Origin: a virus
Lineage: Monodnaviria > Loebvirae > Hofneiviricota > Faserviricetes > Tubulavirales > Inoviridae
Strand: one strand, 5' to 3'
DNA length: 6,655 nucleotides
Virus record (IMG/VR): IMGVR_UViG_2547132255_000001
Coordinates: 1-6,655 of that record
Each line of letters starts with the position of its first letter. Positions within the stretch are counted from its first letter, which is position 1. The notes below the pieces were generated by a model. The model worked only from the letters and a program-made list of their open reading frames with translations, was not told where the DNA came from and did not search any database. Shown here piece by piece: positions 1 to 6,509 of this stretch. A program made the position numbers and the translations under genes.

Positions 1-480
1 GTGCCACGTAACGTGGATAAACCTGCGAATCGTATTGAAGATATCCACGGTATGGCTGATTTCATCAGCCAGTATCCTGGTGTTGATAGCACCCGTATTG
101 GTTTGCTGGGGATTTGCGGGGGAGGAGGGTATTCACTTGCTGCCGCCGAGACGGACAAACGATTCAAATCGATTGCAACCATTAGCATGTTTAATTCAGG
201 ACTTGTACGGCGCAATGGTATGCAGGATTCACAGTTGGATACTATTCAACAACGTCTTCAGCAGGCTTCAGATGCACGAGCTCAGGAAGTCGCCGGTGGC
301 GAAGTGCTTTACTCCGGTGATGCCAACCTGACTGATGAACAGATCGCTAAATTACCTTTTGCGTTATATCGCCAGGGCTACGAGTACTACTGGAAAACCC
401 ACGCACACCCAAACTCAACGTTTAAATACACCACGAGCAGTTTGTTAGACTTGATGAACTCAGAAATCACAACGTATTGA
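1..480 (+). CDS. 3' portion of a host alpha/beta-hydrolase (dienelactone-hydrolase-like) gene; true start lies upstream of the window
   Basis: Frame is open from the window edge to TGA at 478-480. Product contains GICGGGGYS (Gly-x-Cys-x-Gly nucleophile-elbow pattern as in the dienelactone hydrolase family) and a His-containing C-terminal segment (WKTHAHP). The GTG at position 1 is probably not the real start. Family assignment is motif-based only. Confidence 0.55.
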   Translation: MPRNVDKPANRIEDIHGMADFISQYPGVDSTRIGLLGICGGGGYSLAAAETDKRFKSIATISMFNSGLVRRNGMQDSQLDTIQQRLQQASDARAQEVAGGEVLYSGDANLTDEQIAKLPFALYRQGYEYYWKTHAHPNSTFKYTTSSLLDLMNSEITTY

Positions 481-529
481 TTTATCTGTGTGTGGATGTG
501 AATGGTGAAGTAAAGGACCTTCACAGTCA

Positions 530-557
530 ATTTAACATAATATACATTATGCGCACC
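530..557 (-). other. dif: dif-type XerC/XerD recombination site forming the host-prophage junction
   Basis: Minus-strand reading of 530-557 is GGTGCGCATAA-TGTATA-TTATGTTAAAT, which matches the E. coli dif sequence as I recall it (11-bp XerC arm, 6-bp central region, 11-bp XerD arm). The XerD arm (530-540) faces the host gene and the XerC arm (547-557) faces the prophage. Confidence 0.85.
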
Positions 558-684
558 AATGGTAAGGATGGCAGAATCTGGCGGGAATCGTTGACACTGG
601 CCGTCAACTGGCTACTATCGACAGTGATTCAAAATCATCCGTTTCTCCAAACGAATCAGAATCAAATGTCTGTCAGCAGTAAGT

Positions 685-1335: not shown

Positions 1336-2580
1336 TCAGTTCAGGTTGTCCCGGAACAGTTCACCGCTCCTCGCGGCGCTGCGGGGCGTCGCCCTGCTCC
1401 GGTCAACCTTTCTGACCTGAAGCATCACCATAATATCAGTCTTGTTGCTTTCACTGGTACGGGAACCGAAGAAGCTCCAGCCGGAACTGGCCTTACTGTC
1501 TTTCTGTTCAGCAAGGCCACCAAGTAAAATAATATCACCATCTGCAAGGCTGACTTCGGTTGTTACATCACGCTTGATAAGGGTTGGCGAGTTATTGACG
1601 CCGGTTTCAGTGGTCACAAAGTTGGAAAGCTGCTGCTGAATCTTGAGATCCATTGTCCGACTTTTGATTGATGGCGTCACGTTAAACAAAACACCGCTGG
1701 AACGATATTCAACGGATTGCGTTGTCGTATTGTTATTCACCGTAACACTGCCCAGTACTGGCACATCAGAGCCGACTGAAAAAGACGCTGAGGCATTATT
1801 TTTTACCCGCAGTCGTGGCGCACTGACAACAGTAAAACGACTGTCGGTTTTCAGCAGATTGAAAATGGCATCAATGGAGCCGGTTCGAATATTGATAAAA
1901 TTATCCAGTCCGGCAGCACCAACTGAAATATTGAATTTATCAGACAGAATTTTAGCCGCTAAAAGAATGCCGGAGCCGTCAGACTGCGAGGTCTGAACCT
2001 CAAAAACATAACCAGAAACAACCACTTCATCACTCATCGTATCCAGCGAAGTGACCAGTGTTTTCAGGATGGCGATATCCTCTTTCGTACCATAATAAAC
2101 CAGAATATCACCGGTTCGATTGATGTAGTTGCTTGCCCCTGATGAACCTTTTAGCGAATCGTCAGAAATCACGGCTCCACTGTTATTGAAGGAGCCTGAA
2201 ACGTAGCCGCCAAGAATATCAGACAGGTAGGCAACAGAACGGTACTGAGGCGTATAAGTCCATGTATAACGTGGCTTAACCGGCTCTTTCGGCGTATAGG
2301 GCGCGATAAAATCAACACCCTTTTTCGTCCATATTCGAATGTTCATATTGCCAAGATAACGGGTTACAAATTCCCGTTCATCAATATCAGATGTTAACCT
2401 GAATGTAATCATTCGTTCATCATTAACAAGCTGTGGATCTAGCATATACGGGACTTTAAGCACCTCACTGTAAATAAGAGAAATAGCCTCCGGTAGCTTG
2501 ACTTTATTTAATTCAAGCTCTGACCCTGCGAAAGCACATGAAGAAAATAGTAGCGTTAATGCGAGTAAAATCTTTTTCAT
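1336..2580 (-). CDS. Filamentous-phage secretin (pIV-like, GspD/PulD secretin family), 414 aa
   Basis: N-terminal signal peptide MKKILLALTLLFSSCAFA|GS. C-terminal secretin-domain hallmarks (DGDIILLGGL ... WSFFGS ... DIMVMLQVRKV). Start ATG overlaps the stop of the upstream gI-like gene (TAATG at 2578-2582). Last gene of the module, as in Ff phages. Confidence 0.85.
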   Translation of the reverse strand: MKKILLALTLLFSSCAFAGSELELNKVKLPEAISLIYSEVLKVPYMLDPQLVNDERMITFRLTSDIDEREFVTRYLGNMNIRIWTKKGVDFIAPYTPKEPVKPRYTWTYTPQYRSVAYLSDILGGYVSGSFNNSGAVISDDSLKGSSGASNYINRTGDILVYYGTKEDIAILKTLVTSLDTMSDEVVVSGYVFEVQTSQSDGSGILLAAKILSDKFNISVGAAGLDNFINIRTGSIDAIFNLLKTDSRFTVVSAPRLRVKNNASASFSVGSDVPVLGSVTVNNNTTTQSVEYRSSGVLFNVTPSIKSRTMDLKIQQQLSNFVTTETGVNNSPTLIKRDVTTEVSLADGDIILLGGLAEQKDSKASSGWSFFGSRTSESNKTDIMVMLQVRKVDRSRATPRSAARSGELFRDNLN

Positions 2581-3590
2581 TATTTTTTCCCCGTATAAAG
2601 CGTCACACGCTCACCATCAATAATTCCGCTCATCAACATCCCTTTATAATTAAAACTGGATGCAGGAACGGCACGCAAAACACCGGCACCGTTAACAAGA
2701 ATCACAAACGCCCTGCCTTCACTGGTCATTCTCCCTGATATACGCCACTCGGTTGAAAGTGGCGGTTCAGCTGGTTCTGAGGGAGTAGCAGCGGAAGAAC
2801 GAAACATGGCCGCATCACGTACATCTGTTGTAGTCAAATCTGGCGAGGGATCGCTTCGGCCAAACGTGCTGAAAAATGAGTAAATCAGCCAGCCTGACCC
2901 GATAAACATCAATGGAAAAAGCACAAGAAAGAACCTGACTTTGCCAGAATTCCAGATGCTCTGGCGTTTATCTGTCTGCTTTTCATTACCGTTATTTCCT
3001 TCATAGCTTTTGTAAAGTTCAAAAATATCAGGGTTATATTTATTGCGATAACTGGTGACGAGGTTGCTTTTATAGATTTTGTGGCCTGAATATACGTCAA
3101 TGCAGTAATGATTATTCAGGCCCAACGCTTTCAGCTTGCGCATCCGGTAAGTTGTTTCTATTTTGTCTTTCAGAAAGCGAGCAATATTAGAAAGTGACTG
3201 ATTTACAATAACCAAATCACAGCTAATACCCGTTTCAGGGTGCGTAAAATGACGATGTTCAGCAATAAATGATTTCTTCTCAGCCGTCATATCCTTATCG
3301 CTACCGAAGATTCGCCATGCTTCATCAATAACAATTAAATCACCAAACTGGCAAAAGCTCCCTTCCCCACCTTTAAAAGGAAAGAAATCTGCTTTAAGCA
3401 CATCATCATTATCCACAACAATAATTTCTCCCGTTGCATCAGGATAACGTTCGGTGATTTTATCTTTTTGTAAACCATAAATGTTCGTCACAACTCTCCG
3501 GCCGCTGGTAAATGCCGGAATAATGACATTGCAAACGGCTTCATAACTTTTTCCTGAGCCGGGTATGCCAATATATGCAGAAATAGCCAT
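2580..3590 (-). CDS. Filamentous-phage assembly ATPase (pI / Zot family), 336 aa
   Basis: N-terminal Walker A GIPGSGKS, Walker B-like LIVIDEAW, and one internal hydrophobic transmembrane segment (FFLVLFPLMFIGSGWLIYSFF) as in pI. Positioned between gVI-like and secretin genes. Confidence 0.85.
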   Translation of the reverse strand: MAISAYIGIPGSGKSYEAVCNVIIPAFTSGRRVVTNIYGLQKDKITERYPDATGEIIVVDNDDVLKADFFPFKGGEGSFCQFGDLIVIDEAWRIFGSDKDMTAEKKSFIAEHRHFTHPETGISCDLVIVNQSLSNIARFLKDKIETTYRMRKLKALGLNNHYCIDVYSGHKIYKSNLVTSYRNKYNPDIFELYKSYEGNNGNEKQTDKRQSIWNSGKVRFFLVLFPLMFIGSGWLIYSFFSTFGRSDPSPDLTTTDVRDAAMFRSSAATPSEPAEPPLSTEWRISGRMTSEGRAFVILVNGAGVLRAVPASSFNYKGMLMSGIIDGERVTLYTGKK

Positions 3591-3593
3591 AAC

Positions 3594-3881
3594 TCACCCT
3601 ATAACAGGAATACGTCGAATAATAAAACGAGTAGCCATTGCGGAGATAATCATACTAATCCCCTGTGGTAATTTACTCAGGTTAATGAAGTACCAGAATC
3701 CGTCTGATAAATTGGCAAACAGCGATGAGAGATTGCTTGAATCTGGCAGTAACTCAACAAGGATTTCAACGAAGCCCTGGACTACAAAATACAGCGCAAA
3801 GAATACGACGAATTTAATAATCAATGACCGGAATACAAAACCTAACAAAGTATTTAATGCACTAATCAGAATCCCAAACAT
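3594..3881 (-). CDS. Minor coat protein pVI-like small hydrophobic protein, 95 aa
   Basis: Highly hydrophobic multi-segment protein of pVI-like size, located between gIII and gI. AGGAG Shine-Dalgarno 6 nt upstream of the ATG at 3881; stop is 3 nt before the gI start. Confidence 0.6.
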   Translation of the reverse strand: MFGILISALNTLLGFVFRSLIIKFVVFFALYFVVQGFVEILVELLPDSSNLSSLFANLSDGFWYFINLSKLPQGISMIISAMATRFIIRRIPVIG

Positions 3882-3893
3882 AGTTGCACTCCT

Positions 3894-5606
3894 TTAGGCA
3901 CTCAGAATAATACGGAGCGCAACAAATCCCCATATAATCAGAAATATGGTTTCTACGGCGCTTCTGTTCTGCTCAATTAACGGACAATGGGAGTCAATTC
4001 TGTACTGGTGATTAAACACGCTGAATTCAACAACGGGGCAGGATGCTGAACGAGAGCCGATGTTAAATTCGTTTGTAAAAGGCAACAAGTTAATAATTGG
4101 CGTTAAAATATCTCTTGCCGTTGGCGTTTCTTCAAGCTCAGGCTCTTTTACACCGGGATCTTCTCCCAAATCTATATTGCCATTATTTCCAGTGTCAGAT
4201 CCTGAGTTGTTATTAATGGTAATATCAATATTGACGTCAGCCCCTGCACTGTCAGATACAGGTGAAAGCATATCTAATAACGTTGGAGATAGCCTAAGTT
4301 CCGACATCGCAGAAGTTACTTCAGCCGGTGAAACCTCTTTAAACGGTAAGCCGTTATAATCGGCATTAACGGCAGCTTCAGACCACAGCTCGTTAATCAT
4401 GTCGGCAAGAAGTGCTGGCGATACACTAACACTATCAAGATACTCCAGATAATCAATCATGGACTCAATATTTCCGGCCTCCAGTACTTCCGTCATGGCT
4501 TTATATTTGGTATTGGTCCAGATAGTAAGCTCACTCTTTTCATCAATATCTTTTGTGGTGTAATCCTCTTTTTCAGGAACGGCGCAAATCGTCGAATATC
4601 CACCATTTGACTGATTAGTCGTTTTACAAGGCGTGTTGTGATACTGATATTGCTTTCCTGCTGTTAAATAAGCAACGCTGTAATACATGGGAAGCCCTGC
4701 TACATTTTCATACATGGGAATACCTGCGGGAAATGAAGATGCGGCCGGGTTGCTATACAAGTGTGTAATCTCAGGAATTTCATAAAATGAGGAAGGATAA
4801 GTAAACTTATAATTCTGTTCAGTAAAGGAGACATCTCCATTACTGTTGACAACTTTATTCGTCACAGTGCGTTCAAAATTCGTTAGTGTTTCAGTATAAG
4901 TACGCGAGTTATAGTCATTAAGATAATTTCTGGCAATTTCAGTTGGATTATCACCATAGTAATAAATTAGCTCTTTCGAATCCTGATAATAATAAAGTGC
5001 ATTATCTGGCGTGGAATATCCTGTTTCAACACCTACAACTGGAGAACCCGCATCCACATTATTACGACTAACATGAAGGATTACCGGACTTAATTCCTGT
5101 GGTTCAAAATTAACGGTTATCGTCTTACTTTCACCACTTTGACCACTGTACGTTACTTCATATAAATTATCGGAAATCTTTTTACCGTTAGTCATTACCA
5201 TTACCGAGCCGTCAGATGAACTCAAAGAAGACGGAACAAAAGATGATACAGCAGCAGCAATACCCGCCCACGTTGCAACACCGCTCATTTTGTATGATGA
5301 GGCAGCAGGCAAGTATTCGGCAGCATTAGCCGCAGCACGGCCAACAAAAACACGGGTTGCTGTAAGCTGTGATGCCGTATAAATCGCATCATTGGCAGCA
5401 AAGCGACGAACAAGCACCCGGCCAACGACTTTAGGAATAACAGCCCGCGCAGCCACTGCTGCAATTGCTGGTACAAATGAATATGAATATCGGGGAAAGG
5501 AAACCCAGAGAAAGGAAAAAATAAAGGAATAAACCGTCAGCCTCTTAGCCCAAGAATAACGACATAAGCTGAGACGATCCCCCATAAAAGGGAACCCAAT
5601 TTCCAT
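3894..5606 (-). CDS. Adsorption / minor coat protein pIII-like, 570 aa; start codon uncertain
   Basis: Largest ORF in the structural module, directly after gVIII and its terminator. Ser/Thr/Asn/Tyr-rich central region, Gly/Asn/Asp-rich linker (NNNSGSDTGNNGN) and C-terminal hydrophobic anchor (TIFLIIWGFVALRIILSA) as in pIII. GGAG 8 nt upstream of the ATG at 5606. N-terminal 110 aa are atypical. Confidence 0.6.
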   Translation of the reverse strand: MEIGFPFMGDRLSLCRYSWAKRLTVYSFIFSFLWVSFPRYSYSFVPAIAAVAARAVIPKVVGRVLVRRFAANDAIYTASQLTATRVFVGRAAANAAEYLPAASSYKMSGVATWAGIAAAVSSFVPSSLSSSDGSVMVMTNGKKISDNLYEVTYSGQSGESKTITVNFEPQELSPVILHVSRNNVDAGSPVVGVETGYSTPDNALYYYQDSKELIYYYGDNPTEIARNYLNDYNSRTYTETLTNFERTVTNKVVNSNGDVSFTEQNYKFTYPSSFYEIPEITHLYSNPAASSFPAGIPMYENVAGLPMYYSVAYLTAGKQYQYHNTPCKTTNQSNGGYSTICAVPEKEDYTTKDIDEKSELTIWTNTKYKAMTEVLEAGNIESMIDYLEYLDSVSVSPALLADMINELWSEAAVNADYNGLPFKEVSPAEVTSAMSELRLSPTLLDMLSPVSDSAGADVNIDITINNNSGSDTGNNGNIDLGEDPGVKEPELEETPTARDILTPIINLLPFTNEFNIGSRSASCPVVEFSVFNHQYRIDSHCPLIEQNRSAVETIFLIIWGFVALRIILSA

Positions 5607-5670: not shown

Positions 5671-5862
5671 TTATGCGGATTTAACGGTACGCAATACCCA
5701 GCGAACGCCAGCGACACCGGCATAAAGTGTTACCAGTGAAGCAGCAACGGCCATAATCGCAACCAGAACTGTACTGAAATCAATGCTGTTCGTCAGCGGC
5801 GATAAATCAACACCACTTGATGCCGCTCCTTCTGCAGCGAAAGTCGCGCCAGAAACAGCCAT
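5671..5862 (-). CDS. Major coat protein pVIII-like, as called from ATG 5862; the probable true start is ATG 5903 in another frame, so the gene appears frameshifted
   Basis: Mature-protein architecture after an AxA site: acidic N-terminus AEGAASSGVD, hydrophobic core, basic C-terminus RWVLRTVKSA. The ATG at 5862 has no Shine-Dalgarno and leaves only a 9-aa leader. A GGAG-preceded ATG at 5903 encodes MFKK and is out of frame by one nucleotide at the A6 run 5892-5897. Confidence 0.7.
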   Translation of the reverse strand: MAVSGATFAAEGAASSGVDLSPLTNSIDFSTVLVAIMAVAASLVTLYAGVAGVRWVLRTVKSA

Positions 5863-5937
5863 TAATGCAGGTACAGCCAGAAAACTAACGATTTTTTAAA
5901 CATAACTCTATCTCCATTACATTTTAAAGGTTCGCAT

Positions 5938-6189
5938 TCAAGCAGTACGAACCATCTTTATTACCTGTCCCACACCTACAGAAAAAAGCCAGAGCAGCAG
6001 GACAGAGCCAAAACCTAATGTCCAGTAATTTCCCATTGCAGAATAATCAATTTGATGAAATGGTTCAGAACGTACCATTATTGCCTGACATTCTTTTGCA
6101 TTGTTCGCATTACATAAATAACCTTCAATACGGTAACCATTTTCAGGAATATGATTATCAAACTGAATATCGAAACCTGATGTATCCAT
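5938..6189 (-). CDS. Hypothetical small membrane protein in the position of the Ff pVII/pIX minor coat genes, 83 aa
   Basis: Lies between the gV-like and gVIII genes; start is 2 nt after the gV-like stop. C-terminal hydrophobic segment WTLGFGSVLLLWLFSVGVGQVI. Assignment is by synteny only. Confidence 0.4.
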   Translation of the reverse strand: MDTSGFDIQFDNHIPENGYRIEGYLCNANNAKECQAIMVRSEPFHQIDYSAMGNYWTLGFGSVLLLWLFSVGVGQVIKMVRTA

Positions 6190-6191
6190 AA

Positions 6192-6509
6192 TCAGCCTTT
6201 TATTTCAGTAATGCCGCCATCTGATGAAATGTTATAAGTTACTCCTTCCCTCCCCTCCATTGACCAGACGCGAACATATACAGGTATCTGGACTAACTTA
6301 CCGATAAAATTATTTGCCTGATTCATTACACCGGCATTAACAAGAGCCTGAGATACACGAATAATAATCTGGTCTTGCTTAGTGCCGCCAAAACCATCAG
6401 GAATCTCTAAGCCAACACCAATTTCATTATAGTATCCCTGACCATTGACCTTATTACGCTGGCGAGCACCAAGCATTTTACCTTTTACAAAAAGACCATA
6501 ATTAGACAT
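6192..6509 (-). CDS. Putative ssDNA-binding protein (gV analogue), 105 aa
   Basis: AAGGAG Shine-Dalgarno 6 nt upstream of the ATG at 6509. Size and position (after the replication gene, before structural genes) match gV. No recognisable motif, so the function is inferred from synteny. Confidence 0.4.
   Translation of the reverse strand: MSNYGLFVKGKMLGARQRNKVNGQGYYNEIGVGLEIPDGFGGTKQDQIIIRVSQALVNAGVMNQANNFIGKLVQIPVYVRVWSMEGREGVTYNISSDGGITEIKG

Follow-up and report, generated by a model that had tools for sequence, protein, structure and literature searches.

A probable phage-rebuilt dif site at the secretin-side end of a CUS-1 filamentous prophage in Escherichia coli

The window, which is the whole 6,655-nucleotide stretch of DNA analysed here, is E. 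coli chromosome, approximately 100% identical to strains 998 and STIN_95 and 99.9% identical to NC101. In the complete genomes, an acetylxylan-esterase pseudogene is followed by dif, small ORFs, and genes for a secretin, Zot, a DUF2523 protein, a pIII-like protein and a coat protein; next come a membrane protein gene, those for a G5P protein and the gII/X replication protein, a divergent HTH repressor-like gene, a hypothetical gene, the STM4504/CBY_0614 gene, and finally hipA-hipB. Within the window, the features are:

1 to 480, + strand: 3' part of a host acetylxylan-esterase-like (alpha/beta hydrolase) gene (Pfam AXE1, E 7.9e-05), an incomplete pseudogene in the RefSeq annotation of 998 and NC101.
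530 to 540, − strand: XerD-binding arm of dif, TTATGTTAAAT, an exact dif match; host-derived and host-proximal, the equivalent arm and centre of a Klebsiella plasmid lysogen being those of the target.
541 to 546, − strand: 6-bp central region TGTATA; host-derived. Of its six bases, the phage attP centre TGTCAACGCG has only the first three (TGT) in common.
547 to 557, − strand: XerC-binding arm GGTGCGCATAA; phage-proximal, and phage-derived according to the exchange model and the heterologous lysogens.
558 to 1335, − strand: 3'-terminal non-structural segment of the prophage, missing from the empty site and 100% identical to the end of YpfΦ (unit 9039-9268); annotated as hypothetical proteins, no Pfam match.
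1336 to 2580, − strand: pIV-type secretin (Pfam Secretin, E 1.5e-24).
2580 to 3590, − strand: pI/Zot-type assembly ATPase (Pfam Zot, E 2.1e-26), 98% identical to the Y. pestis YpfΦ protein.
3594 to 3881, − strand: DUF2523 small membrane protein at the pVI position (Pfam DUF2523, E 1e-20).
3894 to 5606, − strand: large protein at the position of the pIII adsorption protein (RefSeq start 5456), by position the puvA-type gene of CUS-1; from the ORF list and annotation, no Pfam match.
5671 to 5904, − strand: major coat protein (pVIII-like) gene, frameshifted in this window (Pfam Phage_Coat_B, E 4.9e-4, below the gathering score).
5938 to 6189, − strand: small membrane protein at a minor coat or morphogenesis position; from annotation, no Pfam match.
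6192 to 6509, − strand: G5P-type single-stranded-DNA-binding protein (Pfam Putative_G5P, E 1.2e-52).
6521 to 6655, − strand: 3' end of the gII/X rolling-circle replication initiator, which runs past the window (annotated at 18522-19574 of the longer locus L001; Pfam Phage_CRI 1.1e-73, G2P_X_C 3.4e-34).

In dif, GGTGCGCATAA is the XerC arm and TTATGTTAAAT the XerD arm. Positions 530-557 of the window read GGTGCGCATAATGTATATTATGTTAAAT on the − strand, which is identical to canonical E. coli dif at 28 of 28 positions and has the architecture of the species consensus, namely an 11-bp XerC arm, a 6-bp centre and an 11-bp XerD arm; no match to dif with three or fewer mismatches arose in any of 200 dinucleotide-preserving shuffles. 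On the + strand, the order is thus the XerD arm ATTTAACATAA (530-540), the centre TATACA (541-546) and the XerC arm TTATGCGCACC (547-557). The same 28-mer is given for the dif site of E. coli K12 (PMC2731167), and the assignment of the two arms is consistent with the layout of a published table (PMC3089051). The host ORF stops at position 480 and dif begins 49 nt further on. As the original prediction had it, the host side of the site, toward the esterase pseudogene, is the XerD arm, and the side facing the prophage is the XerC arm. That no second dif-like site lies within the window was likewise correct: the best other match reached 18/28, and in a loose scan 17/28 matches occurred in flanking host DNA as well.

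The esterase gene is contiguous with dif and hipA in prophage-free strains. When the predicted empty site was assembled by joining the window up to position 557 to the hipA-side flank, the resulting esterase–dif–hipA sequence matched at least 12 prophage-free E. coli without interruption (278/278 identical positions), and 847 genomes at a coverage of at least 80%. Since the empty site bears no interruption whatsoever, the DNA from position 558 onward, between the two XerC arms, is an insertion. Its boundaries fall exactly on the boundary between XerC arm and centre, and the XerC arm is present at both ends. The segment from 558 to 1335, whose host origin would have spoken against an integrated element, is missing from the empty site in prophage-free E. 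coli. Furthermore, dif is single per chromosome, as the 32-mer that contains it has 4,853 occurrences in 4,853 records, one in each, and it lies at the conserved terminus locus beside hipA, in the same context as in the empty sites.

The insert is a 9,268-bp inovirus that is 99.4% identical over 7.5 kb (7,502 nt) to YpfΦ of Yersinia pestis. Judged from its sequence, it is the described filamentous prophage CUS-1, the sister of this plague phage; the assignment rests on the near-identity to YpfΦ together with the description of CUS-1 in the literature. CUS-1 was reported as a prophage of E. coli O18:K1:H7 by Gonzalez et al. in 2002 (cited in PMC4266046), and YpfΦ and CUS-1 are described as sharing 99% identity over a 7.1-kb core while differing in their attL-side cargo, with homologues of YPO2280a and YPO2281 located by attR (PMC4266046). 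The present prophage conforms to this lineage in its near-identity to the YpfΦ core and in its different attL-side cargo. With CUS-1 it shares an E. coli host, integration at dif, and the gene order of HTH repressor, gII, gV, coat genes, puvA/pIII, pVI-like gene, Zot, secretin and two small ORFs by attR, as well as two unrelated attL-side cargo ORFs in place of YPO2271/2272; it differs by a 1-bp deletion in the start region of the coat gene. The puvA product is a receptor-binding virion protein (PMC4266046). Pfam recognises a filamentous-phage gene set (secretin, Zot, DUF2523, coat B, G5P and G2P), and no integrase or recombinase is present among the annotated genes of the prophage in L001 and in the NC101 annotation. 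A search of the INPHARED phage collection in near mode returned no near match to the phage, and a scan of the genome collection with the Zot protein returned one locus, that of Y. pestis NCTC5923.

Two small ORFs on the − strand, at 698-895 and 999-1247, lie between the secretin gene and dif and encode 65 and 82 amino acids, the 82-residue product being very basic. Both are retained in CUS-1, YpfΦ and the Klebsiella plasmid phage, and they occupy the position that ctxAB holds in CTXφ. Neither has a Pfam match, and a marginal PADLOC match to JetB (E 0.004) was treated as noise. In the literature, this attR-side segment corresponds to the YPO2280a/YPO2281 homologues (PMC4266046).

The other junction was expected beyond position 6655, and it is indeed found approximately 9.27 kb away, about 80 nt from the hipA stop (L001 21798-21825, − strand). 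It reads GGTGCGCATAA-TGTCAACGCG-TTATGTTGAAAAGG, in which the XerC arm matches at 11/11 positions, the spacer is 10 nt long and the XerD-like arm matches at 9/11. The XerD-like arm is followed by a GC-rich stem-loop and then, on the same strand, by CATAACGTCATTGTGCGAACC, an inverted and imperfect second half-site (attP2). A second dif-like site past the window, anticipated as a probably degenerate 28-mer, therefore exists, but it is not a simple degenerate 28-mer, given its 10-nt spacer and inverted half-site.

In the circular phage, attP is flanked on its 5' side by the last bases of this segment of the prophage (…CCATCCTTACCATT, ending at 558), and the circular attP was reconstituted by joining this end to the sequence of the hipA-side junction. 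The reconstituted junction occurs at 176/176 identity in at least ten genomes, NC101 and nine others, and also in one IMG/VR contig. In NC101, two complete copies of the 9,268-bp unit, both cargo genes included, are arranged head to tail; the hipA side and the junction between the copies each have attP1 and attP2, and a single intact dif lies at the esterase side. Tandem arrays are also seen in three further loci (L003, L006 and L007).

These tandem lysogens reveal the origin of each arm, as the junction between copies carries the phage's own XerC arm. This arm reads GGTGCGCATAA, which bears out the suggestion that the phage arm is identical to that of the host dif. It is for this very reason that E. 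coli is uninformative as to which XerC arm lies at which junction. Two other hosts, in which the target arm differs, provide the following junctions:

K. pneumoniae plasmid lysogen, two tandem copies of an almost identical phage, far junction: AGTGCGCTTAA-TGTACGACTCG-TTATGTTGAAAAGG.
K. pneumoniae plasmid lysogen, inter-copy junction: GGTGCGCATAA-TGTACGACTCG-…
K. pneumoniae plasmid lysogen, secretin-side junction: GGTGCGCATAA-TGTACG-TTATGTTAAAT.
Y. pestis NCTC5923 YpfΦ, unit of 8,742 bp: far-junction XerC arm GGTGCACATAA; inter-copy XerC arm GGTGCGCATAA; the secretin-side junction lies outside the fetched locus.

Where the target's XerC arm differs from that of the phage, it remains at the far junction, as AGTGCGCTTAA in the Klebsiella plasmid and GGTGCACATAA in Y. 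pestis. The far junction is thus composed of the target XerC arm, the phage centre and the phage XerD arm, and the secretin-side junction, as seen in the Klebsiella plasmid, of the phage XerC arm with the centre and XerD arm of the target. This is the composition that had been proposed for the site in the window, namely a phage-derived XerC arm joined to the chromosomal XerD arm.

The sequence at 530-557 is identical to native dif, and the window by itself would not separate a rebuilt site from a native one beside which the phage had come to lie by coincidence or through some other insertion mechanism. This latter explanation is refuted by the empty site together with the Klebsiella plasmid and Y. 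pestis lysogens, and its probability is negligible: the insertion boundaries coincide precisely with the boundary of XerC arm and centre, the XerC arm is duplicated at the two ends, and the same phage, which has no annotated integrase, also occupies Y. pestis dif and a plasmid-borne dif-like site in Klebsiella, with swapped arms in both. It is thus very probable that 530-557 is an intact dif rebuilt at the secretin-side end of the CUS-1 prophage, the site termed attR in the YpfΦ literature.

The junctions are those to be expected from an exchange of the XerC-cleaved strands only, as shown by both junctions in Klebsiella, by the far and inter-copy junctions in Y. pestis and by the centres in E. 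coli. Combining the three hosts places the crossover between position 8 of the XerC arm and position 3 of the centre, an interval that brackets the XerC cleavage point. This pattern fits the prediction, made from sequence, of a single XerC-mediated strand exchange followed by replication, as opposed to an exchange on the XerD side. Complete recombination of a duplex attP with dif, either in two steps by XerC and XerD or XerD-first as for TLCφ, would place the arms at both junctions in the same arrangement. However, the centres are not hybrid: that of the far junction is wholly phage and that of the near junction wholly host. An XerD-side exchange would put the phage centre beside the host XerD arm, yet the near-junction centre is TGTATA or TGTACG, that of the host or target. 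Moreover, a phage centre of 10-11 nt against the 6 nt of the host is incompatible with a second strand exchange. Recombination of this kind is accordingly very unlikely.

The junctions alone are compatible with either duplex or single-stranded DNA as the phage partner in an XerC-first exchange. The coding strand of inovirus genes is the packaged (+) strand, and the strand considered for folding is the (+) strand because it is the coding strand of the phage genes. In this strand, the two inverted dif-like sites fold into a forked hairpin that presents XerC and XerD arms: the reconstituted attP folds as single-stranded DNA with −33.5 kcal/mol, compared with −14.2 ± 2.9 for shuffled sequences (z −6.56; 0/200). 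Both arms are paired, with a 5-nt bulge in the centre. The XerC arm includes a G·A mismatch and wobble pairs, and a top-strand spacer of 10 nt faces a bottom-strand spacer of 5 nt, a geometry unlike that of the canonical 6-bp site. The inverted half-site attP2 is kept in CUS-1, YpfΦ, the Klebsiella plasmid phage and an unrelated inovirus.

Integration of the VGJφ type would instead employ a conventional duplex attP in the double-stranded replicative form, with XerC exchanging one pair of strands, replication completing the process and the reverse reaction allowing excision. An XerC-first exchange of a duplex followed by replication would equally give rise to host XerC arm, phage centre and phage XerD arm at one end and phage XerC arm, host centre and host XerD arm at the other, so that finding the phage centre at the far junction and the host centre at the near one is expected with either substrate. 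In addition, the phage centre shares its first 3 nt with the target in E. coli and its first 6 nt in the Klebsiella plasmid, on the XerC side only, as do VGJ-type sites. Yet a duplex attP with a central region of dif-like length is not what these phages possess: the spacer of duplex attP1 is 10-11 bp (10 nt in CUS-1, 11 nt in YpfΦ and the Klebsiella plasmid phage), and at 6-bp spacing only 2/11 positions of the XerD arm match. Furthermore, the inverted second half-site some 60 nt away folds far better than chance and is kept across phages, and reviews group CUS-1 and YpfΦ with CTXφ rather than with VGJφ (PMC4246890). We therefore consider a VGJφ-type route improbable, and the folded hairpin would be the integration substrate of CUS-1. 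The original interpretation is supported, with the refinement that attP would be a folded single-strand hairpin of the CTXφ type, with two inverted half-sites, and not a simple duplex 28-mer.

In the mechanism that emerges, CUS-1, having no integrase of its own, would use the host XerC and XerD recombinases. The packaged (+) single strand, corresponding to the − strand of the window, would carry two dif-like half-sites in inverted orientation: attP1, GGTGCGCATAA-TGTCAACGCG-TTATGTTGAAA, and, about 60 nt downstream on the same strand, attP2, CATAACG-TCA-TTGTGCGAACC. These would pair to give a forked hairpin in which the XerC and XerD arms are double-stranded and the centre is bulged. XerC would then swap one pair of strands between the hairpin and chromosomal dif at the boundary of XerC arm and centre, and replication would turn the intermediate into the prophage. 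The predicted product consists of hipA, the host XerC arm with the phage centre, the phage XerD stem and attP2, the phage genome, the phage XerC arm with the host centre and host XerD arm, and the esterase gene. Because the phage XerC arm is identical to that of E. coli, the site on the esterase side becomes a perfect dif, and as this rebuilt dif could be targeted by further integrations, tandem arrays would result. Catalysis by XerC only, completion by replication, irreversibility, and rolling-circle production of virions from tandem copies would apply to CUS-1 by analogy with CTXφ.

For CTXφ of Vibrio cholerae, integration of single-stranded attP(+) was described by Val et al. in 2005, as reviewed (PMC3089051, PMC4246890). 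CUS-1 resembles CTXφ as an inovirus that lacks an integrase and whose (+) strand has two inverted dif-like sites able to form a forked hairpin, a property known for CUS-1 from sequence; in both, one dif, predicted to be functional in CUS-1, is regenerated, non-functional dif-like sequences lie at the other end, tandem arrays occur, and the repressor and replication module is divergently arranged. In contrast, the attP regions have no sequence relationship, the cargo of CUS-1 is not a toxin, and the inverted sites of CTXφ lie about 90 nt apart in a hairpin of about 150 nt (PMC3089051), versus about 60 nt and about 100 nt in CUS-1. For CUS-1, the likeness in mechanism is predicted from sequence. 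YpfΦ (CUS-2) is much closer, with 99.4% nucleotide identity over the regulation, replication, morphogenesis and secretion modules, and with attP2, the stem-loop, the XerC arm GGTGCGCATAA and tandem copies at dif in common. It differs in its attP-side cargo, the first 1,553 nt of the unit being unmatched in Y. pestis except for the 96-nt attP, in its attP1 centre (TGTACGACTCG, 11 nt, versus TGTCAACGCG, 10 nt), in its unit length (8,742 versus 9,268 bp) and in its host, as the Y. pestis XerC arm is one base off the phage arm.

Much of this has been described before. YpfΦ insertion rebuilds an intact dif at the 3' end, its encapsidated genome carries inverted XerC/XerD sites, and its prophages occur as tandem repeats (PMC4266046); the attP sites of CUS-1 and Ypf were noted to show features of direct single-stranded DNA integration (PMC3089051). 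Both YpfΦ and CUS-1Φ are given as relatives of CTXφ in which XerC performs the first exchange, replication completes the reaction, integration is irreversible and phage is produced by rolling circle (PMC4246890). XerC-only catalysis, irreversibility and rolling-circle virions from tandem copies are known for CTXφ (PMC4246890, PMC3089051), and proposed for YpfΦ and CUS-1 (PMC4266046). The junction, the hairpin attP and the CTX-type class of Xer-dependent integrating elements (IMEX) are therefore already known for CUS-1/YpfΦ (PMC4266046, PMC4246890, PMC3089051), and the locus represents a textbook case of a phage hijacking the chromosome-dimer-resolution machinery of its host, to which no new mechanism is added here. 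What the natural lysogens with differing target XerC arms contribute is a sequence-only confirmation of the place of crossover, which is a useful check and not a discovery. As CUS-1 and YpfΦ are tied to the fitness and virulence of E. coli K1 and the plague bacillus, recognition of the junction also aids in annotating such prophages and setting their boundaries.

The intact dif of the lysogens is the esterase-side site, whereas in the hipA-side hybrid no XerD arm follows at a spacing of 6 bp. The record has no intact dif other than the rebuilt site, in line with the earlier suggestion that this site might function in chromosome-dimer resolution. Since it is the sole intact dif of the lysogen, and since the same is stated for CTXφ and YpfΦ (PMC3089051, PMC4266046), we infer that 530-557 is the functional site of FtsK-dependent dimer resolution in the lysogen and the entry point for further integrations.

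Several further observations concern the individual lysogens. In Y. pestis NCTC5923, the XerC arm on the host side is GGTGCACATAA and that between copies is GGTGCGCATAA (L007 4400-4427 versus 13142-13169). The dif of Y. pestis CO92 has been given with GGTGCGCATAA (PMC2731167), and by comparison of these arms the published CO92 'dif' may be a phage-rebuilt site with the XerC arm of the phage. In the K. pneumoniae plasmid (NZ_CP132684.1, L006), the junctions lie at approximately 2555, 12060 and 21564, and the phage carries three different cargo genes. The dif-like target of this plasmid reconstructs as AGTGCGCTTAA-TGTACG-TTATGTTAAAT, and the attP1 centre of its phage, TGTACGACTCG, starts with the entire centre of the plasmid site. 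This match suggests that the attP1 centre may set target tropism.

The coat gene of the window contains a run of six A residues (5893-5898, − strand), where all nine other copies examined, which included those of strains 998, STIN_95 (three copies), NC101 (two) and the Klebsiella plasmid (two), have seven. The shorter run shifts the frame at codon 4 of the 77-residue coat precursor (MFKKIVSFLAVPALMAVSGATFA…), leaving an ORF of 63 amino acids without the signal-peptide start; either a mutation that inactivates the gene or a sequencing error in the homopolymer would account for it.

At the other end of the prophage, the attP-adjacent cargo gene annotated STM4504/CBY_0614 (L001 20798-21727, + strand) matches Pfam AbiJ_NTD4 (8.6e-27) and DUF7014 (1.1e-77) and, weakly, PADLOC PDC-S32 (4.5e-10), which makes it a candidate abortive-infection or defence gene of a filamentous phage. 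The 139-residue ORF beside it (L001 20292-20711) has no match in Pfam or PADLOC. That these two attL-side genes constitute a separate element was ruled out, as the 9,268-bp tandem unit of NC101 includes them and nothing resembling dif stands between them and the phage.

A further E. coli lysogen, again at the dif beside hipA (L003, IMG/VR UViG_2740892487_000008), has attP1 at 1402 and 10013, with a tandem unit of 8,611 bp. Its inovirus shares with the CUS-1-like phage only the first 1,635 nt, comprising attP and cargo (98.5% identity), and the final ~22 nt leading up to the XerC arm; the remainder of the unit gave no blastn match to that phage. The integration and cargo module is therefore mosaic. 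In addition, approximately 440 enterobacterial plasmids, mostly conjugative, carry a 72-nt stretch about 93% identical to the XerD-arm stem, loop and attP2 half-site. This stretch lies directly downstream of a plasmid gene of the STM4504 family, with no attP1 upstream, as at 3001-3071 of L005, from the E. coli IncF plasmid NZ_CP019251.1; the gene and hairpin stretch there are either a remnant or a shared gene-plus-hairpin module.

The 98.5% identity in two otherwise unrelated inoviruses and the 93% remnant on ~440 IncF-type plasmids raise the tentative idea, which we regard as rather less than an even chance, that the attP hairpin and the AbiJ-like cargo gene form a portable cassette. If so, the integration module and a candidate anti-phage defence gene would pass between dif-integrating phages as one piece, and the attP1 centre (TGTCAACGCG versus TGTACGACTCG) would tune which dif-like targets can be used, be it the chromosome or a plasmid site with the centre TGTACG.

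Finally, STIN_95 contains three copies of a 3,871-bp partial unit (L002 20231-28000) that extends from the middle of gIII to just past the HTH gene, with boundaries equivalent to L001 16365 (window 4365, inside gIII) and L001 20235. Successive Xer integrations were ruled out as the source of these units, because the joins contain nothing resembling dif. A perfect 10-bp stem (AACGTGCAGT-GTTGGTAAT-ACTGCACGTT) downstream of the repressor-like gene has one of the boundaries in its loop, and this boundary is joined to a GTTAAT motif in gIII. Rolling-circle replication that started or stopped aberrantly at a candidate (+) origin could have produced these copies as an RS1-like satellite array; alternatively, they could stem from misassembly.
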